DNA of 32,000 bases from Desulfocapsa sulfexigens DSM 10523 (GCF_000341395.1 NC_020304.1:870001-902000); one strand, 5' to 3'. Counted from the first letter of the stretch, positions 880 through 24,667 are shown. Program-made: numbers and translations. The notes: generated by a model not told the origin, from the letters alone.

Positions 880-940
880 GGAGACTCCTTTTAACGGAAT
901 GAGGGTATCTTCTTATCAGGACTAAAGAATACCACAGAAA

Positions 941-979
941 CATTACCGGAATATTACCGGAACATTACAATGCTGTAAT
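941..979. promoter_or_regulatory. three tandem 11-bp direct repeats overlapping an inverted repeat, in the divergent MoxR/rhodanese intergenic region
   Basis: cATTACCGGAA (941-951), tATTACCGGAA (952-962) and cATTACaatgc (963-973) have one-helical-turn spacing. The third copy is part of ATTACA-atgc-TGTAAT (964-979). TTGTACAA follows at 981-988. Confidence 0.3.
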
Positions 980-1140
980 CTTGTACAATTTTCTGCCAAC
1001 GTGTCTTCAGCCACGCATTATTTCACCAAAAACCCTCCGCAGTCCGATACGTTTTAAATTTGTTCATCCAAGCCAATTATGATAACATCATAAATAATCA
1101 TTCACGATCTGTTCTCGATTTTCTGGTTTACTAAGGAACC

Positions 1141-1977
1141 ATGTTTATGAGAAAAATCATTCCGTTTGTCCTTGGCATTTTTCTTTTTCTCCCAACAAAC
1201 TCTTATGCGCTCGAACGCTTTGAAATTTTCACCACCTCTCAATTGATGCAGCTGCTTCAGGACAGAAAGGATGGAAAAACGGACTTTCTTCTCGTCAATG
1301 CCCTTGACGAAATGATCTACCGCCACGCCTTCATCCCCGGTTCGGTGAATATTCCCATCACCCAGTTTGGGCAATATGCTCACAGGCTCGGAAAAGACAA
1401 AAATAAGCTGATAATTTCATACTGAATGGGCTACAGGTGAGTATTCGCCTACAAAATGGCAGTTGCCATTAAAGCAAAAGGGTTCACAAATATTAAAATA
1501 TACAATGGTGGACTGAAGGACTGGATACAATCAGGCAATCCCACGGAATCAATAGAAACCCTTCCAGAAGCAACCGTCCAGTTTATCGATGTCAATCAAT
1601 TAAGGATGCTTCTTTCCGAGGCTGACAAGACAAACTGTATGGATAAAAATGGTAAACCACTTCTTACACTTATTGATTTCCGTTCCTCCAACAGTGATTC
1701 CATAAAAAAAGGGGCAGATAAATATCGGATAGCAACAAAATGCCATACCATTTCAGCATTGCTTGATGAATTTATTGACAACAATAGCCTTATCGAATCC
1801 ATCCCCTTAGAAGGACTTACTATTTCTATCAGTGAGACAGGAAACAGAGACACGTTCCTTATCAGATATCTCTCCAAATGTTGCAGACCTGATATCCGAG
1901 GTCTTAAATACGGTATGAGAAGCTGGATAAAGGCCGGGTATCCTGTGGAAAAAACAGCCCATTCGGACACAAACTAA
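1141..1977 (+). CDS. exported tandem rhodanese-domain protein with two in-frame TGA codons (candidate selenoprotein, 278 codons)
   Basis: ORF-track ORFs 1141..1425 and 1456..1977 share one frame. Only TGA(1423-1425)-ATGGGCTACAGG-TGA(1438-1440) plus 15 nt separates them. The joined translation begins with the signal peptide MFMRKIIPFVLGIFLFLPTNSYA. It continues ...DFLLVNALDEMIYRHAFIPGSVNIPI...KDKNKLIISY-[TGA]-MGYR-[TGA]-VFAYKMAVAIKAKGFTNIKIYNGGLKDWIQSGNP. The first TGA sits where rhodaneses carry the catalytic Cys of the C-x-x-G-x-R loop. A second, Cys-less rhodanese-like domain follows (ISISETGNRD...MRSWIKAGYPVE). Confidence 0.6.
1435..1470 (+). other. two adjacent small hairpins after the in-frame TGAs (candidate bacterial SECIS elements)
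   Basis: Hairpin 1 is AGGUGA-GUAU-UCGCCU (1435-1450): 6 bp including one G-U pair, with loop G 18 nt after the first UGA. Hairpin 2 is AAUGGC-AGUU-GCCAUU (1455-1470): 6 perfect bp, with loop G 24 nt after the second UGA. Both loops contain GU. The stems are short, so chance is not excluded. Confidence 0.35.
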
Positions 1978-4284
1978 ATGCTTAAAAGTCTTCGTGCCAA
2001 ACTCCGCATGATGCTGTTTTTCCTCAGCATCATCATTGCGTTAGCATTTCTGAACTTTCTGATGAACCAACGTGTTGTGAAACTGGAACGTGACTATGCT
2101 GAAGTTGTTGCAATCAACAATAACTTTGCCGATAACCTTGCCGGTGAATATAATTCTCTTGCCAACCCTGAAAAATTCTCAGACTTAAAAAACAACTATC
2201 TTGTGTTATATCAAAGCTGTACAGGCTGTCACAACTCTAATCCTGGCGAAATAATTATCACCAGGATTGCTTTCCTGGAGGAACTCAACGAAAACCAGCT
2301 CACCGGAATACAACTCAGGCACACCATAAATAACAGGCTTGATGAGCTGACGAAAAGTGTCCGCTATATTCATGAGCATCACATTGCCAGCCTGAAAAAC
2401 TTCCTCCAGCGTAATCAATTCAAGGAAGAACCGTACCCCAGCAATAACAGCGAAAGAAAAGATCCAATAGCATCAGCCCCGGAACTTGATATCATTCAGC
2501 TGACAATAGCTATTCAGAATATCCTGGCTGATATCATTAGCAATTTTTACCTTCTTAAGGATACCCAGACCCCTCTCAAACTTCAAAACGAATTTCTGAA
2601 TAATATTTCTCGTTTTTACTCTACCATCAACCTACTGGAATCCTCTTCACTCGATGCACAGGACGGACTTCTGGTGGAAGAACTTCTTGATTCCGGAAGA
2701 ACATTTGAAAATTCATTTTCAATACTGATTCAACTTGAAGAAACAGAAAGAAAGCTCTTTTTACAGCTCCACGATAACCAGAGAAGGATCCTTGGTGTTG
2801 TCTCCGACGTGACAGGGAAAGTGAAAACGAAACGTGATCGGCTCCACAATCAACTAACTTTTTTGGAATACTCCTCTTTTCTCTTTATTGCCTTCCTTAT
2901 GCTATTGATAGTGAAACAGGGAAGAGGAATTATCCACTCAATCGATCACCTGGTTAATGAAACCGGAAAAATCAAAAAAGATCACACTTATCAAATCTCG
3001 ACAGCGCCAAACCAGGAAGAAGAGTTTCAAATATTATCACAGGCTCTGAATAGTATGGCCGCGAATCTTGACCTAAGAATTCAGAAACTTAACGAAGAAA
3101 CGCGCCTAAGAATCCAGGCTGAGAAAGACAAAACAGAGACAGAAATAAAGCTGCAACGTGCTAAGCAGATGGAGGCCATCGGAACTCTTGCCGGAGGCAT
3201 TGCCCACGATTTCAATAATCTGCTCACAGCAATCCTTGGGAATATAAATATTGCCACCTACTCTCTTTCTCCAGACCATGAAGTATACAACAATCTGGTG
3301 CAGGCAGAAAAGGCATCAAAAAGAGCTCATAAACTCACTAATCAACTGCTCACTTTTTCCAAAGGTGGTGCTCCGATTAGAGAAACGGCTCCAATTGATG
3401 AGGTTATCCGGGAATCTGCCTTTTTTGTTCTTCATGGCAGCAATGTTAACTGCTCCATAGATATCCCGGATGATCTCTGGCTGGTCAAGATTGACAGAGG
3501 ACAGATTGGCCAGGTCATCCAGAACCTGACCCTGAATGCCGACCACAGTATGCCAGAGGGCGGTACCATTTCCATCAGCTGTTCCAATCACCAGGAGACC
3601 CAGGACAGCCCGATGCTCAAAAAAGGCGATTATGTCCGGGTTACTGTCCAGGACCAGGGAACAGGCATCAAGGACACTGATATCTCACATATTTTTGATC
3701 CCTACTTTACAACGAAAGAAAAGGGAAGCATCAAGGGAAGTGGCCTGGGGCTGGCCATCGTCCATTCAATCATCTCCAGACACGGTGGATACATCACCGT
3801 TGCCTCGGAATTAGGCACCGGGACTACCTTTACTTTTTTCCTTCCAGCGGTAAATACAACAGCAGACCTGCAGCAGGAGCCAAGTGGTGATATTCTCTCC
3901 GGAGAGGGGAGAATCCTTGTCATGGATGATGAATCAATGATACTCGCCATAATGGAACACTCACTACCCTCTCTTGGGTACACGGTTGAAACAGCAGACA
4001 GTGGAGAACAGGCATTGAGAATGTATGAAAAAGCTGCTAGAGATAATACTCCCTTTGATCTCGTCATCATGGATCTCACCATTCCGGGTGGCATGGGAGG
4101 AAGAGAGACGGCTGAAAAAATCCTGAAACGCCATCCGGATGCCGTGCTTCTTGTTTCCAGTGGCTACGCCGAGGATCCGATAATGATCAATCCAGCAGAA
4201 TACGGATTCAAAGGGGCACTCAAGAAGCCCTATGAACTCAGAAACCTCTCTCATCTGCTTCATACTTTATTACAGAAAAAGTAA
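1978..4284 (+). CDS. hybrid sensor histidine kinase / response regulator with periplasmic CXXCH-containing sensor domain
   Basis: Two TM segments (MMLFFLSIIIALAFLNFLM and SSFLFIAFLMLLIV) bracket a roughly 265-aa domain containing CTGCH. Then come a HAMP-like linker, a coiled coil and the H-box GGIAHDFNNLLTAILGNI. The HATPase motifs are QVIQNLTLNADHSM, DQGTGI and GSGLGLAIV. A C-terminal REC domain follows (ILVMDDES...DLVIMDLTIPGGMGG...KKP). The ATG directly abuts the rhodanese TAA. Confidence 0.9.
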   Translation: MLKSLRAKLRMMLFFLSIIIALAFLNFLMNQRVVKLERDYAEVVAINNNFADNLAGEYNSLANPEKFSDLKNNYLVLYQSCTGCHNSNPGEIIITRIAFLEELNENQLTGIQLRHTINNRLDELTKSVRYIHEHHIASLKNFLQRNQFKEEPYPSNNSERKDPIASAPELDIIQLTIAIQNILADIISNFYLLKDTQTPLKLQNEFLNNISRFYSTINLLESSSLDAQDGLLVEELLDSGRTFENSFSILIQLEETERKLFLQLHDNQRRILGVVSDVTGKVKTKRDRLHNQLTFLEYSSFLFIAFLMLLIVKQGRGIIHSIDHLVNETGKIKKDHTYQISTAPNQEEEFQILSQALNSMAANLDLRIQKLNEETRLRIQAEKDKTETEIKLQRAKQMEAIGTLAGGIAHDFNNLLTAILGNINIATYSLSPDHEVYNNLVQAEKASKRAHKLTNQLLTFSKGGAPIRETAPIDEVIRESAFFVLHGSNVNCSIDIPDDLWLVKIDRGQIGQVIQNLTLNADHSMPEGGTISISCSNHQETQDSPMLKKGDYVRVTVQDQGTGIKDTDISHIFDPYFTTKEKGSIKGSGLGLAIVHSIISRHGGYITVASELGTGTTFTFFLPAVNTTADLQQEPSGDILSGEGRILVMDDESMILAIMEHSLPSLGYTVETADSGEQALRMYEKAARDNTPFDLVIMDLTIPGGMGGRETAEKILKRHPDAVLLVSSGYAEDPIMINPAEYGFKGALKKPYELRNLSHLLHTLLQKK

Positions 4285-4298
4285 AAAGATTTTCAGCA

Positions 4299-6077
4299 GT
4301 GAATCATGATACCATGCCACTAAAGGATCCTCCTCCCATCAAAAAGGTGCTTGGACTCCTTGGACCAATCTACTTCAAACACCGCATTCGTCTCCTCTTT
4401 GGTCTGATTGCACTCCTTGGAGTCAATTTTCTCCAGCTTATAATTCCTCGTATTCTTAAAAAAGGAATTGATGCACTTGCAGATGGAACAGCCAACCAGA
4501 ACAACCTGCTCGAGCTCGCACTGCTTATCTGTTTTATCGGAGTCATTGCCACTCTGCTTCGTTTCAGCTGGCGCTACCTGATCATAGGATTCTCAAGATA
4601 TCTGGAACGGGACCTGCGGAAAAAGATTTTTGGCCATGTCATGACCATGGATGGAAGTTTTTTCTCCAAATATAGTACAGGTTCCATTATGGCCCACGGA
4701 AGCAACGACCTCGCGGCTGTTCAAATGGCTTGCGGCATGGGCCTCGTTGCTGCCATTGACGCCCTTGTAATGTCAATTGCGGCCATTGCCTTCATGGCCA
4801 ACATTCATTTACGCCTTACACTGCTGGCCCTTTTACCCATGCCAATTCTGGCTCTGGCTACCCGTTATCTTTCGGGACAACTGCACCATCGTTTTGATCG
4901 TGTCCAGGGACAGTTCGCCAGCATGACCGAGTTCGCAAGATCCTCCATCGCATCCATTCGCCTGCTTAAGGCCTACACTCTGGAGACATCACAGAGTAAA
5001 CGCTTTGCCCATCTTGGCCAGAAATATGTCCACTCCAGCATTCGGGTGGCAATCATTCAAGGCCTGCTCTTTCCCATAGCGACTCTTGTCGGGAGTTTCG
5101 GCATGTTGCTGGTACTCTATTTTGGTGGTCGGCTAGTCATCCTGAAAACAATTACCATGGGTGATTTTGTAGCCTTTATAACCTACCTCTATATGTTGAT
5201 CTGGCCCATCATGGCAGTTGGATGGGTGGCCAATCTTTCCCAGAGAGGAGCAACATCACTGCGCCGAATTTACCTCCTTCTTTCAGTTCCATCACAGCTT
5301 CCACCCGGCATCACTGGTCACCGACCAGATAGTTCCCTGTTTCACCTCCATAGGCTCAACTTCAACTATCCAGAATCAGAACGAAGGATACTTAAGGATA
5401 TCACTCTTGATATCCCGCCGGGAATCCTCGGCGTCACAGGTCCCACAGGATGCGGCAAGACCAGTCTCTGCCAGGTGCTGGCCCGTGTCTACCCTATAGC
5501 TGACCAGAGCCTCTTTTTAGGCAGAACAGATATCAACGATCTCCCCCCCGAAACCGTAAAATCTTTGATCAGTTATGTGAGCCAGGAAGCCCTGCTCTTT
5601 TCGAGCTGTCTTCGTGACAACATCGCCTTTGGGAATCCCGATGCATCCATGGAACGAATTGTTGCAGCAGCAACAGCGGCCGCTGTCCACGATGAAATAA
5701 TGGCTCTCCCTCACGGATACGAGAGTATGATTGGGGAAAAAGGCGTTACCCTCTCAGGAGGGCAGCGTGGCAGGGTCGCCCTTGCAAGAGCCATCCTCTG
5801 CGACAGGCCCATTATCATAATAGATGACGGCCTTGCCGCCGTGGACACGAGCACGGAACAGGAAATAATCGAAAATATCACACCATGGCTCAAAGGGAAA
5901 TCGGTCGTCTGGGTCAGTCAGCGAACCAAACAGCTTGCCCGAACAGACAGGGTTCTTGTTTTGGAAAACGGAAAAATCAGTGCCCTCGGCCCCTACAATG
6001 AGGTTGTTCGGGAAAATGCCTTCCTCGCCGAGATCAGCCGCAGACAAGAGCTTCAGGGAGAAGGCAACAATGCGTAA
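4299..6077 (+). CDS. ABC exporter half-transporter (TMD-NBD), degenerate-site subunit
   Basis: The N-terminal half has six TM helices. The NBD has Walker A GPTGCGKTS and signature LSGGQRGRVALARA. Walker B is IIIIDD followed by G, so Asp replaces the catalytic Glu. The switch region is VVWVSQRT, with Gln in place of His. The start is GTG at 4299; ATG at 4314 is an alternative. Confidence 0.9.
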   Translation: MNHDTMPLKDPPPIKKVLGLLGPIYFKHRIRLLFGLIALLGVNFLQLIIPRILKKGIDALADGTANQNNLLELALLICFIGVIATLLRFSWRYLIIGFSRYLERDLRKKIFGHVMTMDGSFFSKYSTGSIMAHGSNDLAAVQMACGMGLVAAIDALVMSIAAIAFMANIHLRLTLLALLPMPILALATRYLSGQLHHRFDRVQGQFASMTEFARSSIASIRLLKAYTLETSQSKRFAHLGQKYVHSSIRVAIIQGLLFPIATLVGSFGMLLVLYFGGRLVILKTITMGDFVAFITYLYMLIWPIMAVGWVANLSQRGATSLRRIYLLLSVPSQLPPGITGHRPDSSLFHLHRLNFNYPESERRILKDITLDIPPGILGVTGPTGCGKTSLCQVLARVYPIADQSLFLGRTDINDLPPETVKSLISYVSQEALLFSSCLRDNIAFGNPDASMERIVAAATAAAVHDEIMALPHGYESMIGEKGVTLSGGQRGRVALARAILCDRPIIIIDDGLAAVDTSTEQEIIENITPWLKGKSVVWVSQRTKQLARTDRVLVLENGKISALGPYNEVVRENAFLAEISRRQELQGEGNNA

Positions 6078-7872
6078 CTTCGGATATTTTGAAGAAGATT
6101 ACACTCCCAAACTTTCCGAGAAGGGATTATGGCGCCGTATCCTCGGCTACATCCATCCCTTCAGGATTCCCTTCACCGGTGCGATCCTGCTCTCCCTTTT
6201 TGTCACAGTCTCAGCGCTCGGCCTCCCCTGGATAATGCAGCGGGCTATTGATCTCTACATAACCAGCCCCATGCTCGATTTTGAACTACGCATGACAGGA
6301 CTCAGTACCAGTGTAATGCTCTACGGAGGGTTAATGCTTATCGGTTTTGTCACTGCTTTTCTCCAGGTCTTGCTCCTTGAATGGATCGGACAATCAATCA
6401 TGCACAGACTGCGCCAGGATCTTTTCAGTCATCTTCTCCAGGTCGAACTGCAGTTCTTCAACACCCAGCCGGTTGGCCGCCTGGTAACCCGCTTGACAAA
6501 TGATGTCCAGAACATGCACGAGATGTTCACATCCATCATGGTAACGATATTCAATGACCTCCTCCGCATGTGCGGCATCCTTGTCCTGCTTCTCTATATG
6601 AATATTCGGCTCGGCCTCCTTCTCTGCCTCTTTGTTCCACTTGCCGTCGTGGTTACCATTCTCTTTTCCAGACTCGCCAGGAATCATTTCCGAGCCATAC
6701 GAAAACAGCTTTCCAAAGTAAACGCATTTGTCCAGGAAGCTGTTTCAGGAGTCTCCCTGGTACAGCTGTTTGGAAGGAGTAGCGATCTCAAACGGAAGTT
6801 TGCAGGGCTTAACGACGATTACATGACAAAAACTCTGCGCCAGATCCGCCTCTTTGGTACATTTATGCCCATCACCGAACTGATGAGTTCGCTGGCAGTT
6901 GCGCTGATTCTCTGGTATGGCGGAGGAGAGATTATCCGTAAGCAACTGACCCTGGGAGAGCTGGTTGCTTTCCTCTCCTATATGCGCCTCTTCTTCCAAC
7001 CGCTCCGGGAGCTTTCACAAAAATATTCCATTGTCCAGTCCGCCCTTGCCTCCGCGGAACGGATCTTTCATCTACTGGATACAGACACCGAGGAACAGAA
7101 CATTTCAGAGGCTGAAAAAAACAGCCCTTTGTCACTGGATGGCGAGCTCTGTTTCAATGAAGTAAACTTCTCCTATCTTCCCGACCAGCCAGTCCTCCAT
7201 GATATCTCTTTTACGGTTAAAAAGGGCGAGACCATAGCCATAGTCGGCGCCACCGGAAGCGGGAAATCCACCCTTCTCAATCTTATGCTCCGTTTTTATG
7301 AACCAGACAGCGGTACCATCAGCCTTGGTGCGCACTTTCTTACTGATGTACCAAAAAAGACACTGCGCCGGGAAATCGGTGTTGTAATGCAGGAAATGCT
7401 TATTCTCCAGGACACCCTGTTGAACAATATTGTTCTTGATACAGGAAAAAGCCGAAAAGAGGTAACAGAACTGCTGCAACAGACCCAATTGATAGAATTT
7501 GTTACCAACCTCTCCATGGGACTCGATACACTTATAGGAGAAGGTGGACAGGCCATGTCAACCGGAGAAAAACAACTCCTCGCCATCGCCAGAGTATTAT
7601 GCCGCAATCCATCTCTGCTGGTACTTGACGAAGCCAGTTCTGCCATTGATTCCAAAACTGAAAAACTTCTGGAACGACCGCTTGAGCACTGTTTCAAAGA
7701 TAAAACCGTGTTAATTATCGCTCACCGCCTCTCCACCGTACAGCGTGCCGATCGAATCATTGTACTTGACAAGGGCAGGATCATGGAACATGGCAGCCAT
7801 GCCTCCCTCCTTGCCAGGGACGGGATTTACAGAAAACTGGTCGCTCTTGATTTCGGATCGGGAATTTCATAA
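6070..7872 (+). CDS. ABC exporter half-transporter (TMD-NBD), consensus-site subunit
   Basis: I moved the start to ATG 6070 (MRNFGYFEEDY...), which overlaps the upstream stop by 8 nt. The 45 codons the ORF track adds upstream lie inside the previous gene. Walker A is GATGSGKST, Walker B is LLVLDEASSAID (Glu present) and the H-loop is IIAHRLST. The signature motif is degenerate (MSTGEKQ instead of LSGGQ). Confidence 0.9.
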   Translation: MRNFGYFEEDYTPKLSEKGLWRRILGYIHPFRIPFTGAILLSLFVTVSALGLPWIMQRAIDLYITSPMLDFELRMTGLSTSVMLYGGLMLIGFVTAFLQVLLLEWIGQSIMHRLRQDLFSHLLQVELQFFNTQPVGRLVTRLTNDVQNMHEMFTSIMVTIFNDLLRMCGILVLLLYMNIRLGLLLCLFVPLAVVVTILFSRLARNHFRAIRKQLSKVNAFVQEAVSGVSLVQLFGRSSDLKRKFAGLNDDYMTKTLRQIRLFGTFMPITELMSSLAVALILWYGGGEIIRKQLTLGELVAFLSYMRLFFQPLRELSQKYSIVQSALASAERIFHLLDTDTEEQNISEAEKNSPLSLDGELCFNEVNFSYLPDQPVLHDISFTVKKGETIAIVGATGSGKSTLLNLMLRFYEPDSGTISLGAHFLTDVPKKTLRREIGVVMQEMLILQDTLLNNIVLDTGKSRKEVTELLQQTQLIEFVTNLSMGLDTLIGEGGQAMSTGEKQLLAIARVLCRNPSLLVLDEASSAIDSKTEKLLERPLEHCFKDKTVLIIAHRLSTVQRADRIIVLDKGRIMEHGSHASLLARDGIYRKLVALDFGSGIS

Positions 7873-7899: not shown

Positions 7900-7928
7900 T
7901 TGACAGAGAGTCAAAATTCATTTACACT
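7900..7928 (+). promoter_or_regulatory. candidate sigma70 promoter for the riboswitch-btuB operon
   Basis: TTGACA (7900-7905), a 17-nt spacer, then TACACT (7923-7928). The promoter ends about 13 nt before riboswitch stem P1. Confidence 0.4.
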
Positions 7929-7940
7929 CCGGCCTAATTT

Positions 7941-8095
7941 TCAGGTTCCATGCAAATGGAGAATAAGGGAACCCGGTGTAAATCCGGGACGGGCCCGCCG
8001 CTGTAATCGGGGACAGTAGCTGCATAGTGTCACTGGTCGTAAGACCGGGAAGACGCAGCTATATGGTTGATCCGAAAGTCAGAAGACCTGCCTGA
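7941..8095 (+). promoter_or_regulatory. cobalamin (B12) riboswitch aptamer
   Basis: Conserved core AATAAGGGAACCCGGTGTAAATCCGGGACGGGCCCGCCGCTGTAA, then GTCACTGG...GGGAAG. The B12 box is AGTCAGAAGACCTGCC (8078-8093). The P1 pairing is CAGGT (7942-7946) with ACCTG (8086-8090). Confidence 0.9.
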
Positions 8096-8192
8096 AGACA
8101 ACGGTACAACCGGGTGCAATCCGGTTATGAGGTACTATGCTGAAATCTCCGTGGACAAGAGATTCCCAGCCATATCTGTGGAATTAAAGGGC

Positions 8193-8232
8193 ATCCCCGG
8201 ATCAATAGTCTATTGGTCCGGGGATTTTTTTT
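8193..8232 (+). terminator. intrinsic terminator (riboswitch expression platform)
   Basis: A 9-bp stem, ATCCCCGGA (8193-8201) with TCCGGGGAT (8217-8225), runs into a T8 tract ending at 8232. It lies between the aptamer and the btuB-like start. Confidence 0.75.
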
Positions 8233-8283
8233 GTCTTTTTGACAAACATCTCTTCGGGCATTTTATTCAAAAGAGGAAAGAAA

Positions 8284-10263
8284 ATGACAAAAAGATATTA
8301 TCCACTTCTCTGTGCACAACTTTTTACCATTGCGGTCGTACCAGGTATTTCTGCAGCAGAGACAAATTCCACAACACTGATGGAAGAAGTTGTTGTCACC
8401 GCCAGCCGAACAGAAGAGAGCAGGGCCACAGTCAGTTCGAATATCAGCATCATCAGCGAAGACGATATTCGCCAATCCGCATCAGACAATGTGGCTGATC
8501 TACTGGCCGAACAGTCCATTGCCACCATCAAGAAATATCCCGGAACACTCACATCCATTGCCCTGCGTGGCTTCTCAACTGACACCCACGGGAACGACCT
8601 TCAGGGACATGTTCTGGTTCTCCTCGACGGGCGCCGTGCAGGAACCGGCAATCTTGCAAAAATTCTTACTAAAAACGTAGCGCGAATCGAGGTTATTCGT
8701 GGCCCCGGAGCTGTACAGTATGGGTCGGCAGGAATGGGCGGAGTCGTCAATGTCATAACAAAAAGAGCAACTGACAATTCGATTTTCACCGAGGCCTACG
8801 GTGGATCCTTTGACACTGCTGAAGGAAGTATCGGTGGATCTTTCCTGAAAGATGGTGTTGATTTTACCGGTTCCTACACATACGGAACCACTGGCGACTA
8901 TGACACAGGCAACGACGAGCACTATCGGAACAGCGGAATTAACTACGAAACCGGAATGAGTACCAATCTCGGCTATTCATTCTCAGAGCTAAACCGAATC
9001 GGACTGATTTTTACCCGTTTTGAGGTAGATGAAGCAGGGACCCCTGGTTTTCTGAACAGGAACGATCTGGATGACTACTCAAACAAAGAGAACTATTCCG
9101 CAGACCTCAATTTTGAAGGACAGTGTCCGCTGACAGAATCGAGAATTTTCGCCCGTTACTTCTTTGGCCAGGACGAAAACAGCTGGATGGATCCTACGGT
9201 TTCCAACCCCAGCGGCTGGAATGATGGGCAGCTGTCGAAAAACAAAACGGACCAACAGGGAGCACAATTTCAACTCAGCCGTGCTCTTGGCCTTGCGACT
9301 CTCACAGCTGGATTTGACTGGTTAGATTATGAAGTAGAAAACAGCTGGACACCAAACACAACTGAATACTCCAACTCTGCCATCTTTCTACTCAGCAGGC
9401 TCTCCTTCCTTGAAGATCGACTCAGTGCAAACATTGGACTGCGTTACGACTGGTATGATGTTGCAGTCACGAACCCGGCAGGGCACAATGCTGATGACAG
9501 CCATTTCACCCCTCAGTTTGGTGTCGCCTGGATGGTGAGCGATACATTGAAACTGAGAGCCCAATACGGAGAGGCCTTTATGATGCCTTCCGCTGACCAG
9601 ATGAGTGCCGATTACTCCAGTTTTGGTTCAAGAGTCGTTGGAAATCCTGGTCTTTCCCCCGAAAAAAGTGCTACCTGGGAGGGCGGTGTGGATTATGGTC
9701 AGAATGGATTCACTGGATCACTCACCTATTTCCATACGGATTTCAAAGACAAAATTGTCAGTGATCCCCTTCTCGATGGATCAAGGAGTTGGAAAAACCT
9801 CGGCGATGCAACCATTTCCGGTATTGAAGCGGAATTTGCCTATGATATCGGCCTGCCACTTGGCCTGGCCTGGGAAGTCCGTCCTTATCTCAATATGACC
9901 ATCCTTACCCGGTATGATGATGAGCAGAGCGGAGAGGATCTTCAAAATATCAGCGCCACGAATTATTCTGCAGGTGTCGTAGTCAACGACGGTGATGGAA
10001 TCTTTTGCCGTCTCAATACTGCCTATTCTGGAAGCCAGAATATTAAGGACTATGAATCAGACTTTCCCTACCGGAATGGCACATTGGATTCTCATATCGT
10101 GACAGACCTGACAGCCTCCTATCGCTTCTATGAAGATTCACGTTTGGGTAGCTTTACTCTACGGGGCGAGTTACAAAATATCTTCGACCAGGACTACGCC
10201 TATGTCAAAGGATACCCCATGCCAGGTCGCGGTTTCTATGCCGGACTCCGCTGGGATTTTTGA
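8284..10263 (+). CDS. btuB: TonB-dependent outer-membrane receptor, BtuB-like (riboswitch-controlled)
   Basis: The start is ATG 8284, after AGAGGAAAG. The signal peptide is MTKRYYPLLCAQLFTIAVVPGISAA. The TonB box is EEVVVTASRTEE, followed by a plug domain (RGFSTDTHGNDL...VLVLLDGRR...IEVIRGPGAVQYGS). The C-terminus RGFYAGLRWDF ends in an aromatic residue. A cobalamin riboswitch lies upstream. Confidence 0.9.
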   Translation: MTKRYYPLLCAQLFTIAVVPGISAAETNSTTLMEEVVVTASRTEESRATVSSNISIISEDDIRQSASDNVADLLAEQSIATIKKYPGTLTSIALRGFSTDTHGNDLQGHVLVLLDGRRAGTGNLAKILTKNVARIEVIRGPGAVQYGSAGMGGVVNVITKRATDNSIFTEAYGGSFDTAEGSIGGSFLKDGVDFTGSYTYGTTGDYDTGNDEHYRNSGINYETGMSTNLGYSFSELNRIGLIFTRFEVDEAGTPGFLNRNDLDDYSNKENYSADLNFEGQCPLTESRIFARYFFGQDENSWMDPTVSNPSGWNDGQLSKNKTDQQGAQFQLSRALGLATLTAGFDWLDYEVENSWTPNTTEYSNSAIFLLSRLSFLEDRLSANIGLRYDWYDVAVTNPAGHNADDSHFTPQFGVAWMVSDTLKLRAQYGEAFMMPSADQMSADYSSFGSRVVGNPGLSPEKSATWEGGVDYGQNGFTGSLTYFHTDFKDKIVSDPLLDGSRSWKNLGDATISGIEAEFAYDIGLPLGLAWEVRPYLNMTILTRYDDEQSGEDLQNISATNYSAGVVVNDGDGIFCRLNTAYSGSQNIKDYESDFPYRNGTLDSHIVTDLTASYRFYEDSRLGSFTLRGELQNIFDQDYAYVKGYPMPGRGFYAGLRWDF

Positions 10264-10297
10264 GGCAGCGGGGAATGAAGCGAACATTTTGACTTGA

Positions 10298-10324
10298 AGC
10301 CCTGAAAAGAGTACATTCAGGGCT
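10298..10324 (+). terminator. 9-bp hairpin after the btuB-like gene (possible attenuator or weak terminator)
   Basis: AGCCCTGAA-aagagtaca-TTCAGGGCT. No clear T tract follows, so read-through into the CbiK-like gene is likely. Confidence 0.3.
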
Positions 10325-10392
10325 GCTGTCATTTACAATTTCACTCAATTTCCCAGCCTATAGATGGCGATGGATCAGCCAAAGGAATCAAT

Positions 10393-11250
10393 ATGCATCA
10401 GTATGGATATATCGGCCGCAAATTGCGCGTCCCGAAACTCAAGAACAAACCAGCCATTATCATGGTCACCTTTGGTACCAGCAGTCAGGCAGAAAGGCCA
10501 CTGGGCCTGTTTCAGCAGCAGGTGGAAAAACAATTTGGGGAATACGAAACCTTCTGGGCGTACAGCTCAAACATCATCTGCAGAAAAAAGAAACTGCCGA
10601 GCCTGCAGCAGACCCTTGCAACTGTAGAGGCTGCAGGATTTCGTAAAGCTGTGGTTCAGCCCCTGCATATATTTCCGGGAACTGAGTATCAGCAGATGGC
10701 AGAGACCTGCGAATATTTCCCTGGCATTCGGGTTTTCCTCAGTGAAACCTTACTGCACCGCTGGAGCTTTGTTAAAGAGACCCTGGCCGTGGTTGAAAAG
10801 GAGTTTCTCGCTCCGGCAGAAGGCCTTAATATCCTGGCCCTCCATGGGACTCCCCTGGTTGCAGACCCGGTCAACAGCGGCTATCTCGGTCTTGAAAAAC
10901 TCGTTACAGACCGCTACCCGAACGTGCTCGCCGCATCCCTTGAGGGAGTGCCTGACAGTGACGCGGTATTTGCCGGAATACAAAACAAAAATATGGCCGA
11001 AAAGTATCGACAGATAAAAATAATTCCCATGATGTACCTGGCTGGAATGCACGCTGAAGAAGACCTTATGGCCCCAAAGAAAGTTGATAGCTGGCGTGTT
11101 ATCCTTGAATCCATGGGATTTGCTGTGGAATGTCCGATGGTTCAACATGGTAAAAAAGACTTTTTCAAGGGCCTTGCCTACTACCCGGAAATCATCTCAT
11201 TCTTCACGGACCGATTGCAACGAACCCTTGAAATAGCTGAGACCTACTAA
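10393..11250 (+). CDS. cbiK: CbiK-type (anaerobic) sirohydrochlorin cobaltochelatase-like protein, apparently cytoplasmic
   Basis: AIIMVTFGTSS matches the CbiK N-terminal strand. LALHGTP...NSGYLGLEKL matches the GHGT..Y..L His motif. IPMMYLAGMHAEEDL matches the AGdHa.nD motif. No signal peptide. RBS AAAGGAA. Confidence 0.7.
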   Translation: MHQYGYIGRKLRVPKLKNKPAIIMVTFGTSSQAERPLGLFQQQVEKQFGEYETFWAYSSNIICRKKKLPSLQQTLATVEAAGFRKAVVQPLHIFPGTEYQQMAETCEYFPGIRVFLSETLLHRWSFVKETLAVVEKEFLAPAEGLNILALHGTPLVADPVNSGYLGLEKLVTDRYPNVLAASLEGVPDSDAVFAGIQNKNMAEKYRQIKIIPMMYLAGMHAEEDLMAPKKVDSWRVILESMGFAVECPMVQHGKKDFFKGLAYYPEIISFFTDRLQRTLEIAETY

Positions 11251-11255
11251 AGCAC

Positions 11256-12110
11256 ATGTACAGACAACTCTTTGTCTTTTTCTTTTTTGTCCTATGTCTC
11301 TTCGGATCTCCTGTACAGGGGGCCGATGTCACATATCCTCAGCGCATAGTCTCCCTGGGGCCAATCAATACCGAAAACGTCTTCCTTCTGGGGGCTGGTG
11401 ATCGCCTTGTCGCCAATACCAGCTACTGCGTCCGCCCAGAGGCCGCTAAAGCCAGAGAAAAGATAGGTTCTGTAATGCAGGTTTCCATTGAAAAGATTAT
11501 TGGGCTACAACCTGACCTGGTACTGGCAACCGGCCTAACCTCGATGCAGCAAATTAAGCAGCTGGAGTCCGTTGGCATTAACGTTGTTCAGTTCAAGCAG
11601 CCATCATCTTTAGCGGATATCTGTACCCAGTTCCTCCTCCTCGGCCAGCTCCTTGGCCTTGAAAACCGGGCAAAAGCGCTCATTTCTGAAACAAAGGAAA
11701 GACTGAATAATCTTGAGAAGAAAATTGCCGGGGCGCCACCGCAGAAGGTCTTTCTTCAGGTAGGTTCCCAGCCACTATTCTCCTCGGTACCAAGCTCCTT
11801 CACCAATGACTTTATTGTCCTTGCCGGCGGCAGTAACATCGCAGCAGATCAGCAAAAAGGTACCACAAATTATGAAAAAGTGATCGCTGCCAACCCCGAT
11901 GTGATTATCATAGCCATGATGGGATCCGAAAGTGGTATTGCCTCAAAAGAACGTGAGCGATGGATGGAGATGCCTGTCATCAGTGCAGTGCAAAACAATC
12001 GGGTACATGTGATCAATCCTGACATCGCCTGCAGTCCTTCACCCGCGACCTTTACCGACACTCTTGAGATCATGGCCCGTCTGATTCACCCTGAACTCTA
12101 CACCCCATAA
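11256..12110 (+). CDS. periplasmic substrate-binding protein, BtuF / Fe-siderophore (cluster A, PBP_2) family
   Basis: The signal peptide is MYRQLFVFFFFVLCLFGSPVQGA. QRIVSLGPINTENVFLLGAGDRLVANTSYC is the typical BtuF/FhuD-type N-terminal motif. PDVIIIAM and RVHVINPD match the C-lobe. Confidence 0.75.
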   Translation: MYRQLFVFFFFVLCLFGSPVQGADVTYPQRIVSLGPINTENVFLLGAGDRLVANTSYCVRPEAAKAREKIGSVMQVSIEKIIGLQPDLVLATGLTSMQQIKQLESVGINVVQFKQPSSLADICTQFLLLGQLLGLENRAKALISETKERLNNLEKKIAGAPPQKVFLQVGSQPLFSSVPSSFTNDFIVLAGGSNIAADQQKGTTNYEKVIAANPDVIIIAMMGSESGIASKERERWMEMPVISAVQNNRVHVINPDIACSPSPATFTDTLEIMARLIHPELYTP

Positions 12111-12114
12111 AACC

Positions 12115-12729
12115 ATGAGAATTTACGAAATCATCCAAAGCGGTGGCCCGGTGATGTGGCCACTGCTCCTCTGTTCCGTGACGGTATGCACCGTTGTTCT
12201 GGAACGCAGTTTCTTCTGGATTTCCATCCAGCGCAGACGTAACCGTAAGCTGACGGATGAAGTCCTGACTCTTGCAGAAAGTGCTGACTGGAAGCTAATC
12301 CGTGAAAAAGTAACCGGCTGTCAAGACCATATCATCCGACTGCTGGTGGTTGGTATTCTGCACAGAGATTATGATATGGGCCGGGCCATGGAAGCTGAGG
12401 CGAACTTGATGATTCAGCGAATGAACCGCTTTATGCCAGTACTGGATACCATGATCACGGTGGCACCTCTGCTTGGAATATTCGGAACGGTACTCGGAAT
12501 CATCGGATCCTTTAAGATCCTTGGCAACAGTGGCATTGCCGATCCGAAGCTGGTCACATCCGGCATCGCCCAGGCACTCATCACAACTGCGGCAGGACTT
12601 GGCATCTCTATCATCGCGGTGATCCCCTACAACTACTTCAATACCCGAATAAACCGAGCAGTTCATGTGATGGAAAAGTATGCAACCAACCTGGAAGTGG
12701 TTTATGAAAAGCTGGACACCCCATCATGA
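12115..12729 (+). CDS. exbB: MotA/TolQ/ExbB proton-channel protein
   Basis: Three TM helices. The conserved C-terminal half is LDTMITVAPLLGIFGTVLGII...IAQALITTAAGLGISIIAVIPYNYF. Confidence 0.85.
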   Translation: MRIYEIIQSGGPVMWPLLLCSVTVCTVVLERSFFWISIQRRRNRKLTDEVLTLAESADWKLIREKVTGCQDHIIRLLVVGILHRDYDMGRAMEAEANLMIQRMNRFMPVLDTMITVAPLLGIFGTVLGIIGSFKILGNSGIADPKLVTSGIAQALITTAAGLGISIIAVIPYNYFNTRINRAVHVMEKYATNLEVVYEKLDTPS

Positions 12730-13139
12730 AAATTAAAGCTCAAGCAATCAAGGCACCGCGTATCGAGATGCTGCCACTCATCGATGTTGTCTTTCTGCTA
12801 CTGGTTTTCTTTATTTACGCAATGCTTTCCATGGCAGTGCATCGGGGAATGCAGCTTGATCTTCCGGAATCAACAGAGGCAACTGACAGTCATGAAAGCC
12901 CGTTTTCATTAACCATTCGTAGTGATGATAAAGATATGACACTTTTTCTCAATGAAAAACCTCTCCTCCTTTCTCAACTGGCTCAACATTTTGACTCAGT
13001 GGATACCAGCAACGGAAAAAAACCTTCAGTTCTTATTTTTGCAGACGAAAACATCAGCTACCAACAACTGTATCAGGTTCTCGATGAACTCAAAAAATGC
13101 GGGGTTTCGGATATTTCACTGCAGGCAAATCCGAAATAA
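12726..13139 (+). CDS. exbD: ExbD/TolR biopolymer transport protein
   Basis: An ATGA overlap joins it to exbB. The N-terminal motif is EMLPLIDVVFLLLVFFI. The C-terminal periplasmic domain reads VLIFADENISYQQLYQVLDELKKCGV. Confidence 0.85.
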   Translation: MKIKAQAIKAPRIEMLPLIDVVFLLLVFFIYAMLSMAVHRGMQLDLPESTEATDSHESPFSLTIRSDDKDMTLFLNEKPLLLSQLAQHFDSVDTSNGKKPSVLIFADENISYQQLYQVLDELKKCGVSDISLQANPK

Positions 13140-13145
13140 GCTCCT

Positions 13146-13811
13146 GTGCGAAGATTTATCCCTGCCCTGATCCTTGCCCTTTGTCTCCACATCTTCTTAC
13201 TGATATCAAGGTTTCCACACCTTCCAACACTTCCGCCACGTTTAACCGGGCAAGAAAGTGTTACCATCAGCCTCAGTCCAGGCAGCAGTGTTGAAAAGCA
13301 AACAGAAACCGTAACAAAAGAAGAGCAGAGGAACACCATTGAAAAACCTGAGAAGGACGAGGCCGCAGTGGAAACGTCTGAGAAAATAAATACTCACGAC
13401 AAACAACCAGTCGTTTTAAAAAAAAAGGCTGTTCAGAAAATTGTCCACTCTCCCTCAGTCCCTGAACAGAAAAAGGCAGGGGTACAGAACAGTGCCAGAC
13501 CGAGAGAGGAGAGTGAACTACCTGCTGTTCCCATCCTCGTAAAGGCCTCACCGCACTATGCAAGCAATCCAAAGCCGGAATATCCCGCACTGGCCCGCCG
13601 TCGCAACCAGCAGGGAACTGTTATGGTATCTGTAACTGTTTCAGAAAAAGGAGTTCCAGACAGGGTCAGCCTCCACAAAAGCAGCGGTTATCCACTGCTG
13701 GACAAATCTGCTCTGAAGGCAGTCACCTTATGGCACTTTCTTCCAGGAACGACAGCTGGCCATCCCGTTGCCACGGAGGTACTGATCCCGGTACATTTCA
13801 AACTTCATTAG
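13146..13811 (+). CDS. tonB: TonB-family energy transducer
   Basis: GTG start and an N-terminal TM anchor, then a Glu/Lys/Pro-rich linker. The TonB_C domain is PEYPALARRRNQQGTVMVSVTVSEKGVPDRVSLHKSSGYPLLDKSALKAVTLWHFLPG. Confidence 0.85.
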   Translation: MRRFIPALILALCLHIFLLISRFPHLPTLPPRLTGQESVTISLSPGSSVEKQTETVTKEEQRNTIEKPEKDEAAVETSEKINTHDKQPVVLKKKAVQKIVHSPSVPEQKKAGVQNSARPREESELPAVPILVKASPHYASNPKPEYPALARRRNQQGTVMVSVTVSEKGVPDRVSLHKSSGYPLLDKSALKAVTLWHFLPGTTAGHPVATEVLIPVHFKLH

Positions 13812-14102: not shown

Positions 14103-16682
14103 TTGCTTCGAGTAAACATTCTAATCTGCATTGTTGTTGCGCTAATCTGTACAGGTTTATGGGCCATTATGAACAGGCCCGGACAGGAGCCTGTCTGGCC
14201 GTCGCGGATACAGGGCTTTTCCTTTTCTCCTCTGCGAGAGGGCGACAATCCTTCTAAAGGCCAACTCCCCTCTGAAGAAGAAATCGAGGCAGACCTGGCC
14301 CTCCTTGCCAATAAAACAAACGCCATTCGTACCTATACAGTAAACGGAGTTTATGAAAGCATCCCGCGTCTTGCCTACAAACACAACATCAATGTTGCCC
14401 TTGGTGCCTGGCTCGACAAGGATCTCGAGAAAAATGAGAAGGAGATAGCACAACTCATAAAAATAGCCAGAGAAAATTACCGAAATGTTGTTCGTGTGGT
14501 AGTCGGCAATGAAACCGTACTTCGTGGAGACCTCACCGTAAAACAACTCAATTCCTACCTTGATCGGGTACAAGCGGCCCTTGACATACCTGTAGGTACA
14601 GCAGAACCATGGCATATCTGGATAAAAGAACCATCACTTGGAGAACATGTAGACTACATCGGAGCCCATATGCTTCCCTACTGGGAAGGAATAGAACTGC
14701 AGCGGGCAGTGGGACATGTCACAAACCGGACAAGTCTACTCATGGAAAAATTTCCAAACAAACCTGTAGCTATTATGGAAGTTGGCTGGCCCAGCAATGG
14801 CCGAACCATCGGCAGAGCCCAGGCCTCCCCCTCCAACGAGGCCACATTTCTACGACGTTTTCTCAAGCGCGCCGAAAAGGAAAAATACGTCTACTACGTA
14901 ATGGAAGCCTTTGATCAGCCGTGGAAGCAGGCCAGCGAAGGAGCTGTCGGTGCATACTGGGGAGTTTACGACCTGAACCGGCATCCTAAGTTCCCCTTTG
15001 ACGCAGCAATCATCAGTATTCCTGAGTGGAAGCTGTTGGCTGGTATTTCTGTACTGATCGCCTTTATGACTTCAGCCCTGCTCTTTATTGACAGTCGCTC
15101 TCTCAGCAGTCGGGGACGCGGCTTTCTGACCGTCATTGCCTTTTCAGCGGCGTCTATGGCGGTATTGATAATCTATAATTATTTTCATCAGTACCTCACT
15201 GTTTCCACCACACTAATCGGAGTGATGCTGGTAACCGGAATGACAGGAGTTGTCCTGGTTCTGCTGACAGAGGCCCATGAGTGGGCTGAGGCAACCTGGA
15301 TCGCATATCCGCGCCGACCGTTCATACCAATAATAGTTCCCGACCAGGAGCTTCCCATGGTGTCGATCCATGTCCCAACTTACAACGAACCACCGGACAT
15401 GATGAAAGAAACGCTCCAGGCTCTTTCACGGCTCGATTACCCGAACTTCGAGGTCATCGTCATTGATAACAACACCAAGGATCCGAATGTCTGGCAACCA
15501 GTCGCCGAATTCTGTAAACAGCTTGGGCCACGCTTCAGATTTTTTCATGAAGATCCCTTACCAGGATTCAAAGCCGGGGCACTTAACTTTACCCTTGCCA
15601 AGACCGCTCCCGAGGCGGAAGTTGTGGCGGTTATCGACAGTGATTACGCTGTAGAACCCCAGTGGCTTCGTGAGCTGGCTTCACAGTTCACCGATACCCT
15701 GGTGGCTATTGTCCAGGCACCACAGGATTATCGTGACAGCAAAGAGAGTTTGTTCAAGTCAATGTGTTATTCTGAATACAAGGGATTTTTTCTCATAGGC
15801 ATGGTGACAAGAAACGAGCGTAATGCCATTATCCAGCACGGCACCATGACCATGGTCAGACGTTCTGTGCTCGAGGATGTCAACGGTTGGGCCGAGTGGT
15901 GTATCACCGAAGATGCAGAACTGGGACTCAGAATTTTCGAGAAAGGCCACAAGGCCGTCTATATTGCAGAGAGTTACGGCAAGGGCCTCATGCCGGACAC
16001 CTTCAATGATTTCAAGAAGCAGCGTTTCAGGTGGGCATATGGAGCAGTACAGATTCTGCGACGTCATGCACAGGTATTGTTTCGTCATAGTGGCTCCGGA
16101 CTTACCAGAGGACAGCGTTACCACTTTATTGCCGGCTGGCTGCCATGGATTGCAGACAGCGCAAACCTCCTTTTCACTCTTTCTGCCCTTGTCTGGTCCG
16201 TTGCCATGGCCCTGTTCCCGGATAAAATCGAATCACCGCTGCTTATCCTAACAGCCCTGCCTCTGACACTTTTCATCTTCAAGCTTGCCAAAATGCTCTA
16301 TCTGTACCGCCAGCGGGTCAAGGCAAGTATTCTCCAGACTGTTGCCTCCGCCCTGGCAGGTCTTGCCCTGTCCCATACCATATCAAAAGCCATTCTGCTG
16401 GGATTTGTAACCTCCGGAATACCATTTGCCCGCACACCGAAAAATGCGGCTTCCCATGCCCTGCTGCGAGCGTTACAATCGGCAAGGGAAGAAGCCCTGA
16501 TCATGCTGGCTCTATGGCTTTCCGCCTATTCCGTCATGGTTATACCAAGGATGTACAATACGCCGGACACCCTGGTCTGGTTCACTTTTCTGCTCGTGCA
16601 GTCTATTCCCTACATGTCTGCAGTTTTCATGGCTATTATAAGTAGTTTTTCCACCCGTAAAAATGAGGAAATCACCCTGTAA
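14103..16682 (+). CDS. ndvB: NdvB-like bifunctional GH17 (beta-1,3-glucanase/transglycosylase) - GT2 glycosyltransferase, probable (cyclic) beta-glucan synthase
   Basis: TTG start after AAGGGA and an N-terminal TM anchor. The GH17 motifs are VVGNETVLRGD (acid/base) and AIMEVGWPSNG (nucleophile signature). Then come multiple TM helices and GT2 motifs: VSIHVPTYNEPPDMM...VIVIDNNTKD, VIDSDY, TEDAEL and QRFRWAYG. GH17 followed by GT2 at about 860 aa is the NdvB architecture. Confidence 0.8.
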   Translation: MLRVNILICIVVALICTGLWAIMNRPGQEPVWPSRIQGFSFSPLREGDNPSKGQLPSEEEIEADLALLANKTNAIRTYTVNGVYESIPRLAYKHNINVALGAWLDKDLEKNEKEIAQLIKIARENYRNVVRVVVGNETVLRGDLTVKQLNSYLDRVQAALDIPVGTAEPWHIWIKEPSLGEHVDYIGAHMLPYWEGIELQRAVGHVTNRTSLLMEKFPNKPVAIMEVGWPSNGRTIGRAQASPSNEATFLRRFLKRAEKEKYVYYVMEAFDQPWKQASEGAVGAYWGVYDLNRHPKFPFDAAIISIPEWKLLAGISVLIAFMTSALLFIDSRSLSSRGRGFLTVIAFSAASMAVLIIYNYFHQYLTVSTTLIGVMLVTGMTGVVLVLLTEAHEWAEATWIAYPRRPFIPIIVPDQELPMVSIHVPTYNEPPDMMKETLQALSRLDYPNFEVIVIDNNTKDPNVWQPVAEFCKQLGPRFRFFHEDPLPGFKAGALNFTLAKTAPEAEVVAVIDSDYAVEPQWLRELASQFTDTLVAIVQAPQDYRDSKESLFKSMCYSEYKGFFLIGMVTRNERNAIIQHGTMTMVRRSVLEDVNGWAEWCITEDAELGLRIFEKGHKAVYIAESYGKGLMPDTFNDFKKQRFRWAYGAVQILRRHAQVLFRHSGSGLTRGQRYHFIAGWLPWIADSANLLFTLSALVWSVAMALFPDKIESPLLILTALPLTLFIFKLAKMLYLYRQRVKASILQTVASALAGLALSHTISKAILLGFVTSGIPFARTPKNAASHALLRALQSAREEALIMLALWLSAYSVMVIPRMYNTPDTLVWFTFLLVQSIPYMSAVFMAIISSFSTRKNEEITL

Positions 16683-16708
16683 GATCAGGATCACTTGATT
16701 CCGAAGAC

Positions 16709-18565: not shown

Positions 18566-18621
18566 TGTATTAATGGGTTAGATATGAGAAAAGTGGAATC
18601 GAGGAAAATGGAGCTTTACTT

Positions 18622-23990: not shown

Positions 23991-24068
23991 TTGTTACGTT
24001 CCTCCCTTTTAGGTATGAAATATGTGAGACAAAATATAAAAAAATAACTGAACACACTGGGAATTCCC

Positions 24069-24082: not shown

Positions 24083-24105
24083 AATATCAAAGTCTCTCCC
24101 TGTGG

Positions 24106-24638: not shown

Positions 24639-24667
24639 TCACCTTTTGGTGTTTGTATTTCACCAGC

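Follow-up and report, generated by a model that had tools for sequence, protein, structure and literature searches.

The pairing of a periplasmic partner protein with a hybrid histidine kinase is already known from TorT/TorS and LuxP/LuxQ, the UxxxxU selenocysteine loop is known from TsoB, and haem c is known from periplasmic PAS and Cache sensors. Here we analyze 32 kb (the window) of Desulfocapsa sulfexigens DSM 10523, a marine sulfur-disproportionating bacterium, in which positions 1141–7872 carry genes for a rhodanese with two in-frame TGA codons, a hybrid sensor histidine kinase, and two ATP-binding cassette (ABC) half-transporters, ABC1 and ABC2. Gene order across genomes divides this stretch into two functional units, on what is probably one transcript in D. 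sulfexigens. The two-unit architecture and the assignment of the rhodanese as a selenoprotein, taken together, are very likely correct; the complete explanation, in which the rhodanese would also act as a co-sensor of the kinase and the exporter would be separate, stands at an even chance. Features are given by window coordinates, on the plus strand unless stated otherwise.

TorS is the textbook example of a kinase that depends on an accessory periplasmic protein. The TorT–TorS system for trimethylamine N-oxide sensing in E. coli (3i9w, 3o1i) has a periplasmic partner and a hybrid kinase in common with the present locus. The TorS periplasmic domain, like that predicted here, is an all-helical two-bundle stack of ~270 residues, and TorS is among the best fold matches of the window kinase. 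In contrast to TorT, which has a periplasmic-binding-protein fold, the partner here is a tandem rhodanese selenoprotein. The window kinase also differs from TorS in that it lacks sequence similarity in the sensor domain (the match to TIGR02956 reaches 111 bits against a cut-off of 676.5 and covers only residues 494–767), has no Hpt domain by Pfam, and contains a CXXCH motif. In LuxP–LuxQ, which senses autoinducer-2 in Vibrio, the gene order is the same, with the gene for the periplasmic partner directly 5' of the hybrid kinase gene, and LuxQ gives a weak NCBIfam match in the catalytic part of the window kinase. The phosphorelay partners of LuxP–LuxQ are encoded elsewhere. LuxQ, however, has a tandem PAS/Cache-like periplasmic domain in place of a helical one, and its partner LuxP, with a binding-protein fold, takes up a small molecule by non-covalent binding. 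The Geobacter receptors GSU0582/GSU0935 (PAS-haem c) and Cache_haem receptors resemble the window kinase in having a single CXXCH in a periplasmic sensor domain; the window sensor, however, is modeled as a helical bundle and its CXXCH is optional in the family.

A described rhodanese selenoprotein close to that of the window is TsoB (NF045694; 'rhodanese form 5', resembling a rhodanese/DsbD fusion), which has the same UxxxxU spacing of two selenocysteines and is the best NCBIfam match of the window rhodanese. The match covers the rhodanese domain only and scores 46.4 bits against a cut-off of 805; the window protein has 278 aa as opposed to ~572 aa of the fusion, lacks the DsbD-like membrane domain, has a second, Cys-less rhodanese domain, and is paired with a kinase. 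The rhodanese_LYCAU family (NF041203, CxU) matches at 35.2 bits versus a cut-off of 115, its CxU differing from the [U/C]x4U motif of the window protein. By sequence, the closest solved structure is BH2092 of Bacillus halodurans (3nhv, 3o3w), a functionally uncharacterized single-domain protein that has Cys in place of Sec and no kinase. A 2026 review distinguishes five rhodanese selenoprotein forms, among them TsoB with UxxxxU.

The rhodanese and its in-frame UGA codons

The rhodanese is composed of tandem rhodanese domains (Pfam Rhodanese, E = 1.9e-11). Reading through the two in-frame TGA codons gives IISY-U-MGYR-U-VFAYK, so that the active-site loop of domain 1 is U95-M-G-Y-R-U100; the family motif, Y-[U/C]-x-G-x-R-U, is kept in 39 loci. 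The first UGA aligns with Cys in homologues and the second with Cys in BH2092, whose CWGPAC places a Cys at both Sec positions. Conservation of the amino acid sequence runs on past both UGAs, through VFAYKxAVAxK and all of domain 2 (34 full-length reconstructions). Domain 2 (residues 165–278, window 1633–1977) has no catalytic Cys yet is very conserved: the loop E232-T-G-N-R-D, which replaces the catalytic Cys, is invariant together with G258, R260, and W262 in 34/34 sequences. C166 and C201 are also invariant among the 34 full-length sequences and may form a periplasmic disulfide. Judged by eye, residues 1–23 (N-terminus MFMRKIIPFVLGIFLFLPTNSYA/LERF) read as a Sec-type signal peptide, in agreement with the first-pass annotation of this locus, and the same h-region followed by A/LERF recurs in the rhodanese homologues.

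Two hairpins shortly downstream of the UGA codons are candidate selenocysteine insertion sequences (SECIS). In H2, assigned to UGA2, 95.4% of cells are paired and the loop is AGUU or GGUC. Three pairs show two-sided changes (UA 17 / CG 16; GC 18 / AU 7; GC 34 / AU 2), and the covariation score was reached by none of 500 shuffles. H2 thus has what is expected of a selenoprotein gene: a hairpin shortly 3' of the UGA, a G/U apical loop, and covariation. H1, assigned to UGA1, is paired at a mean of 5.7 of 6 positions where UGA1 is kept and 3.7 of 6 where Cys substitutes; it is the weaker SECIS case because the homologue alignment contains no compensatory changes.

By its conservation, the rhodanese is very likely a true selenoprotein that contains two selenocysteines. 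A decayed pseudogene with ordinary TGA stops would fit the way in which gene callers split or shorten the gene: 73 of the 75 database matches are fragments of ~156–180 aa. Both in-frame TGA positions recur, however, in 39 loci across several orders, conservation extends on both sides of the UGAs, U and C alternate at position 1, and the downstream hairpins are conserved. These observations exclude the pseudogene with near certainty, and the possibility of a dead reading frame, which the first-pass annotation had left standing, falls away. Public databases store the family almost only as C-terminal fragments of ~173 aa (P0011–P0083); entry P0015 is full-length in a code-4 translation, with W at both UGA sites. 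In the D. sulfexigens genome paper (PMC3739170), nine rhodaneses are counted; two of them have neighboring locus tags, UWK_03368 and UWK_03369, and may be the two halves of the window rhodanese gene. No tRNA genes were found in the 32-kb window.

The rhodanese–kinase pair and the sensor domain

The first-pass annotation had suggested that the co-occurrence of rhodanese, kinase, and ABC pair be compared across genomes. Run from three sides, this comparison revealed that the rhodanese and the kinase do co-occur, and it did not support the ABC pair as a further member of their system. The sensor-side scan, with one genome per species, yielded 37 loci from Desulfobulbia, Desulfobacteria, Geopsychrobacteraceae, Fundidesulfovibrio, one metagenome-assembled genome (MAG) labeled Pseudomonadota, and one Acidobacteriota MAG. 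Carriers of the module include Desulfosarcina alkanivorans PL12, Desulfopila aestuarii, and Desulfogranum japonicum. The rhodanese gene lies immediately 5' of the sensor kinase gene in 35 of them; the two exceptions are L009, which has no rhodanese, and L012, where none is seen in the available 470 nt. From the rhodanese side, all three of the most divergent hits examined (42–45% identity) are followed immediately 3' by a kinase with the SLDAQDG motif, and all retain the C/U...U motif. The distance from rhodanese stop to kinase start is −4 to +15 nt in 21 of the 24 loci measured; in the window, as the first-pass annotation stated, the rhodanese TAA (1975–1977) directly abuts the kinase ATG (1978–1980).

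Clustering of all open reading frames (ORFs) from −7 to +11 kb revealed no third conserved gene and no response regulator beside the pair. Apparent extra conserved clusters were discarded as antisense ORFs within the kinase gene or lineage-specific neighbors. The genes 3' of the kinase are unrelated among loci and often convergent on it. No DNA-binding response regulator is encoded in the whole 32 kb, where the only regulators are of the TetR type; this, too, agrees with the first-pass annotation. Judged from these neighborhoods, the rhodanese and kinase genes (1141–4284) are a conserved, start/stop-coupled two-gene signaling module. Locus L013, which is the same as L002 (Desulfobacterales MAG CP070697), has a rhodanese frameshifted after IYNGGL (~9260) and a sensor gene broken by a run of N (~11100); a sigma-54-type response regulator and flagellar genes follow, and no other locus has a DNA-binding regulator next to the module.

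Pfam identifies the kinase as a hybrid type with HisKA (H410), HATPase_c, and a C-terminal receiver (D699 region), which the first-pass annotation did not mention. Hydrophobic segments at residues 11–29 (TM1) and 295–312 (TM2) enclose a periplasmic helical domain (residues ~30–294), matching the ~265 aa estimated previously, and TM2 is followed by a HAMP-like linker. An exact-sequence look-up of the kinase returned no record. The sensor domain matches no Pfam family at E values up to 5, and a search of the PDB with the sensor profile returned only NarQ, which matches the TM2/HAMP part, and nothing in the sensor domain itself. In an exhaustive HMMER scan covering 1.84 billion representative proteins, the domain appeared in only 76 clusters, always at the N-terminus of long proteins.

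Motifs were counted over 39 members of the sensor family. R96, H135, F190, S224-LDAQDGLL-232, E234, and L236 are invariant (39/39), and Y130 as well as H132 and H134 (both 37/39) are near-invariant. A CXXCH motif occupies one alignment column in 18 members and is missing from the other 21. In the window kinase it reads CTGCH and lies between TM1 and TM2, within the exported domain. The description of the protein as a c-haem kinase was overstated, as the invariant motifs are located elsewhere in the domain. Haem c is rejected as the defining feature of the kinase family; with CXXCH in only 18/39 members, it is a plausible feature of a subfamily. Residues 65–87 of the CXXCH-bearing homologue P0219 give a faint, non-significant match to the C-terminal haem-binding part of cytochrome c' (E = 0.41); the likeness, a CXXCH ending a helix of a four-helix bundle, is only suggestive.

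The AlphaFold2 model of the sensor domain (pLDDT 83) has six helices. Its best Foldseek matches in the PDB are PilJ, TorS (including the TorS–TorT complex), and McpS, all of them helical bimodular sensor domains. TorS is matched with TM-scores of 0.44–0.53 (E about 5e-3 to 1e-2) and PilJ and McpS rank alongside, an agreement in fold class that falls short of homology. Helix lengths in the model would place CXXCH in the membrane-proximal bundle and the invariant motifs at or just below the distal tip, and the S224 motif is a candidate docking or ligand site.

The ABC half-transporters and the B12 cluster

The kinase stop and the ABC1 GTG at 4299 are 14 nt apart, the spacing reported in the first-pass annotation. 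ABC1 is 100% identical to a public D. sulfexigens protein of 587 aa that starts at ATG 4314, so by annotation the gap is 29 nt. The reported 8-nt overlap of ABC1 (stop 6077) and ABC2 (ATG 6070) is present (ATGCGTAA), with a ribosome-binding site, GGGAGAAGG, just 5' of it. A consensus scan detected neither terminator-like nor promoter-like sites at the gene junctions; summed over the region covered, its sites were no more numerous than expected from shuffles. The four-gene cluster ends at 7872 and is followed by a promoter-like site (7900–7928), the cobalamin riboswitch that starts a separate unit, and a terminator-like hairpin (8193–8225).

Motifs of the nucleotide-binding domains (NBDs) bear out the asymmetry of the pair that had been proposed. 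ABC1 has a Walker B, IIIIDDG, without the catalytic Glu and a Gln in the H-loop (VSQRT); ABC2 has a degenerate signature, MSTGE, with canonical Walker A, Walker B (LDE), and H-loop (AHR). Both half-transporters carry ABC_membrane and ABC_tran, as expected for a heterodimeric type IV exporter with a degenerate site. The closest solved relatives are BmrC, TmrB, and TM288 for ABC1, and BmrCD, TmrAB, and TM287/288 for the pair. Like TM287/288, TmrAB, BmrCD, and SmdAB/MdlAB of E. coli, the pair consists of adjacent half-transporters with one degenerate ATP site, but it falls below every NCBIfam equivalog cut-off (SmdA, 413.6 vs 845; SmdB, 366.8 vs 746; MsbA, 427.5 vs 602). An identity as the thiol/haem exporter CydDC was rejected, the matches to CydD (286.6 vs 435) and CydC (234.2 vs 329) being weaker than those to SmdAB and MsbA. 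In locus L045/L046, a DsbA-like protein and then a TlpA/AhpC-like thioredoxin-fold protein are encoded after the ABC pair (12103–13313). Such neighbors hint at a possible role of the ABC family in the thiol-redox balance of the periplasm in some lineages.

Neither a FecCD/BtuC-type permease nor a BtuCD-type ATPase is encoded within the B12 cluster (8239–13811) governed by the cobalamin riboswitch, and the exporter-type ABC pair is the only inner-membrane transporter near it. A MoxR/DUF58/BatA (von Willebrand factor A) operon lies divergently upstream in L004–L006, L034, and L043, and on the minus strand at 1–879 of the window; since the operon abuts ABC1 in L043/L044, it looks as if the rhodanese–kinase module had been inserted into the space from MoxR to the ABC pair, or had been deleted from it elsewhere.

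Farther downstream, the minus strand at 22701–27490 encodes a multi-haem cytochrome c (429 aa), a hemerythrin-PAS protein (338 aa), and a hybrid-cluster (prismane) protein (544 aa); from its gene content this looks like a nitrosative/oxidative stress cluster unrelated to the module. Positions 14103–20523 encode a family-2 glycosyltransferase of 859 aa (plus strand), a sulfatase-domain protein of 618 aa (minus), and a 633-aa protein without a significant family match (minus).

Table 1. Coordinates of genes and sequence elements in the window.
Feature	Position	Strand	Basis or remarks
MoxR-type AAA ATPase gene	ATG at 879, runs off window start	minus	translation of minus strand
Intergenic region, presumed promoter of rhodanese–kinase module	880..1140	.	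between divergent MoxR-type AAA ATPase gene and rhodanese gene
Rhodanese frame, 278 aa	1141–1977	+	Pfam Rhodanese
UGA1 (Sec95), canonical catalytic Cys position of rhodanese	1423..1425	+	TGA in 22, TGC/TGT in 14 of 36 distinct homologous sequences
UGA2 (Sec100), residue after loop Arg	1438..1440	+	TGA in 36/36 distinct sequences, plus L047, L048, L050
H1 (AGGUGA-GUAU-UCGCCU), candidate SECIS for UGA1	1435..1450	+	9 nt past UGA1, UGA2 within stem
H2 (AAUGGC-AGUU-GCCAUU), candidate SECIS for UGA2	1455..1470	+	14 nt past UGA2, GU in apical loop
Hybrid sensor histidine kinase, 768 aa	1978–4284	+	Pfam
CTGCH, residues 81–85, candidate c-haem attachment site	2218..2232	+	alpha2–alpha3 turn, membrane-proximal bundle (model)
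Y130-IHEHH motif	2365..2382	+	distal half of long helix alpha3 (model)
S224-LDAQDGLLVEELL, family-defining motif	2647..2688	+	alpha5–alpha6 turn, membrane-distal tip (model)
ABC1 half-transporter (transmembrane domain + NBD)	4299–6077, annotated start ATG 4314	+	Pfam, NCBIfam
ABC2 half-transporter	6070–7872	+	Pfam, NCBIfam
Cobalamin riboswitch, start of separate unit	7926–8109	+	Rfam RF00174, 120.3 bits
TonB-dependent receptor	8239–10263	+	family matches
CbiK-type chelatase-like protein	10393–11250	+	family matches
BtuF-like binding protein	11256–12110	+	family matches
ExbB, ExbD, TonB	to 13811	+	family matches

Functional readings of the locus

The strict pairing of the two genes and the fold modeled for the sensor suggest a mechanism in which the rhodanese would be a periplasmic co-sensor of the kinase, a reading that we place just short of an even chance. 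The rhodanese would serve the kinase as TorT serves TorS and LuxP serves LuxQ. A periplasmic sulfane-sulfur or selenium species, or an oxidant, would alter the state of the [U/C]-x4-U pair, for which a free selenol, a per-sulfide or per-selenide, and an Se–Se or Se–S bridge are candidate states. Structures of bovine rhodanese and GlpE have residue six of the loop directed at the catalytic Cys, so that U95 and U100 might share a bridging S or Se atom or join in a diselenide. The state of the rhodanese would be read by the sensor's invariant membrane-distal tip (YIHEHH, SLDAQDGLLVEELL), and the signal would cross TM2 and run via the HAMP-like linker and the kinase core to the receiver, and from there to an Hpt protein or a response regulator encoded elsewhere. 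In about half of the family, this gene included, a c-haem on the CXXCH of the membrane-proximal bundle would provide a second redox or gas input. Polysulfide, thiosulfate, elemental sulfur, selenite, or an oxidant would be candidate cues in keeping with the organisms. The more specific proposal that the selenoprotein is the signal-perceiving subunit, which captures sulfane S/Se or oxidizes and docks on the distal tip of the new kinase domain, is more tentative, and we consider it possible rather than probable. An accessory-protein-dependent sensor had been suggested by the first-pass annotation; the rhodanese–kinase pairing and the TorS-like model support this part of its proposal, and the link to ABC export has found no such support.

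Several observations weigh against this account. Conserved adjacency is equally expected for an effector that is co-expressed with its regulator. L009 has a CXXCH sensor and no rhodanese upstream, so a sensor can exist without an adjacent partner. The fold matches are modest (target-normalized TM-scores of 0.44–0.57, E about 1e-3 to 1e-2), and the link between H1, with its lack of compensatory changes, and UGA1 could be partly phylogenetic. In D. sulfexigens and L004, the kinase and ABC1 genes lie close enough to be co-expressed, and hence the two units may have a lineage-specific functional link.

The main rival of a co-sensor role is that the kinase senses alone, through the c-haem and/or the distal His/Asp/Glu cluster (metal, gas, or redox), and that the rhodanese, expressed along with it, serves as an effector or maintenance enzyme that, for example, detoxifies or mobilizes periplasmic sulfane sulfur or selenium and is no co-receptor. 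We consider this the less likely reading. In its favor, H132, H134, H135, D226, D229, and E234, invariant or nearly so, are typical metal or ligand-binding residues, CXXCH recurs at a single position in 18/39 members, L009 dispenses with an adjacent rhodanese, and direct binding of small ligands occurs in McpS and PilJ, whose fold class is the same. The near-universal adjacency and the start/stop coupling, however, are more typical of subunits that form a complex in fixed ratio than of a regulator and what it regulates. As the pair comes without a DNA-binding output, there is no sign that the rhodanese is autoregulated, and catalysis leaves the non-catalytic surface motif of domain 2 (ETGNRD, G258, R260, W262) unaccounted for. 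The coupling would also allow the operon to read out selenium supply: under selenium scarcity, failed Sec insertion would end translation ~550 nt 5' of the kinase start and so lower the level of the kinase, and in D. sulfexigens that of the ABC pair, by lost translational coupling or polarity. In favor of such gating, none of the 39 loci has a Cys codon in place of UGA2, and the stop/start coupling is conserved; yet the idea is purely inferential, chemistry accounts equally well for the invariance of U100, and many selenoprotein genes are first in operons without such a role. We regard selenium gating as very improbable.

The first-pass annotation had read all four genes, as a speculation, as one dedicated sulfur/selenium sensor system tied to the export of a thiol or another substrate by the ABC pair. 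A joint system is favored by the gaps in the window (0, 14–29, and −8 nt), by junctions free of terminator-like sites, by the same order in L004, L005, L006, and L041/L042, and by the redox role hinted at by the DsbA-like/TlpA-like neighbors of the 63%-identical L045 pair. These loci, L045 apart, belong to close Desulfocapsa relatives, however, and only there do ABC1/ABC2 orthologues follow the kinase; the pair is missing from at least 30 other rhodanese–kinase loci. Even among the relatives, the kinase–ABC1 gap widens to ~200–240 nt in L005, L006, and L041, and a promoter-like stretch within it is conserved between L005 and L006. In L043/L044 (ABC1 71% identical), the MoxR operon is followed by ABC1, ABC2, a cobalamin riboswitch, a receptor, CbiK, and a binding protein, with no rhodanese or kinase, and in one Desulfocapsaceae MAG the module (L027) and the ABC pair (L045) are on separate contigs. 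The steady companion of the ABC pair is thus the B12-type uptake cluster. As a general system, the four-gene reading is largely refuted by these comparisons and is improbable; the exporter is not supported as part of the system. Judged from its motifs and synteny, the ABC pair (4299–7872) is an ordinary heterodimeric exporter with one degenerate ATP site and, on the best reading, is unrelated to the module. For this pair, one may ask instead whether it is an exporter-fold importer, the inner-membrane transporter of the adjacent corrinoid/tetrapyrrole TonB system, which would explain a receptor, a BtuF-like protein, and ExbBD–TonB without a BtuCD-type permease. There are importers with an exporter fold: Rv1819c takes up cobalamin, and YbtPQ and IrtAB take up siderophores. 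The order ABC1–ABC2–riboswitch–receptor–CbiK–binding protein is kept in the window, L041, and L043/L044, and the cluster has no FecCD/BtuC permease of its own; in L006, ABC1–ABC2 are kept and CbiK lies ~1 kb downstream, but there is no riboswitch and no receptor match. The riboswitch lies 3' of the ABC pair in the window and 3' of ABC2 in L041 and L043, so the pair is not under B12 control; L004–L006 yielded no riboswitch. Given also that the pair is matched best, by family and by structure, to generic exporters of the multidrug type (SmdA/B, BmrCD, TmrAB), that BtuCD could be encoded elsewhere in the genome, and that the L045 pair has no B12 genes, import is rather unlikely.

The first-pass annotation did not recognize the combination as a described system, and our literature searches, which found nothing specific to the module, agree. 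They returned no papers on a kinase-paired rhodanese selenoprotein or on the sensor domain family, and none on a sensor of periplasmic reactive sulfur or selenium in sulfur-disproportionating or sulfate-reducing bacteria. What appears to be new is the rhodanese selenoprotein strictly paired with a kinase, together with the sensor domain family. Recognition of the two-Sec periplasmic rhodanese family corrects its annotation as fragments and adds a form beyond the five of the 2026 review. The ABC pair cautions that close packing of genes in a single genome is no proof of shared function. In the module, sulfur-disproportionating and sulfate-reducing bacteria have a candidate means, open to test, of perceiving reactive sulfur or selenium in the periplasm. 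If the selenoprotein is indeed the signal-perceiving subunit, the module would be a dedicated reactive sulfur/selenium sensor of Desulfobacterota, with c-haem input in part of the family, and no selenocysteine-based co-receptor of a histidine kinase would precede the rhodanese.

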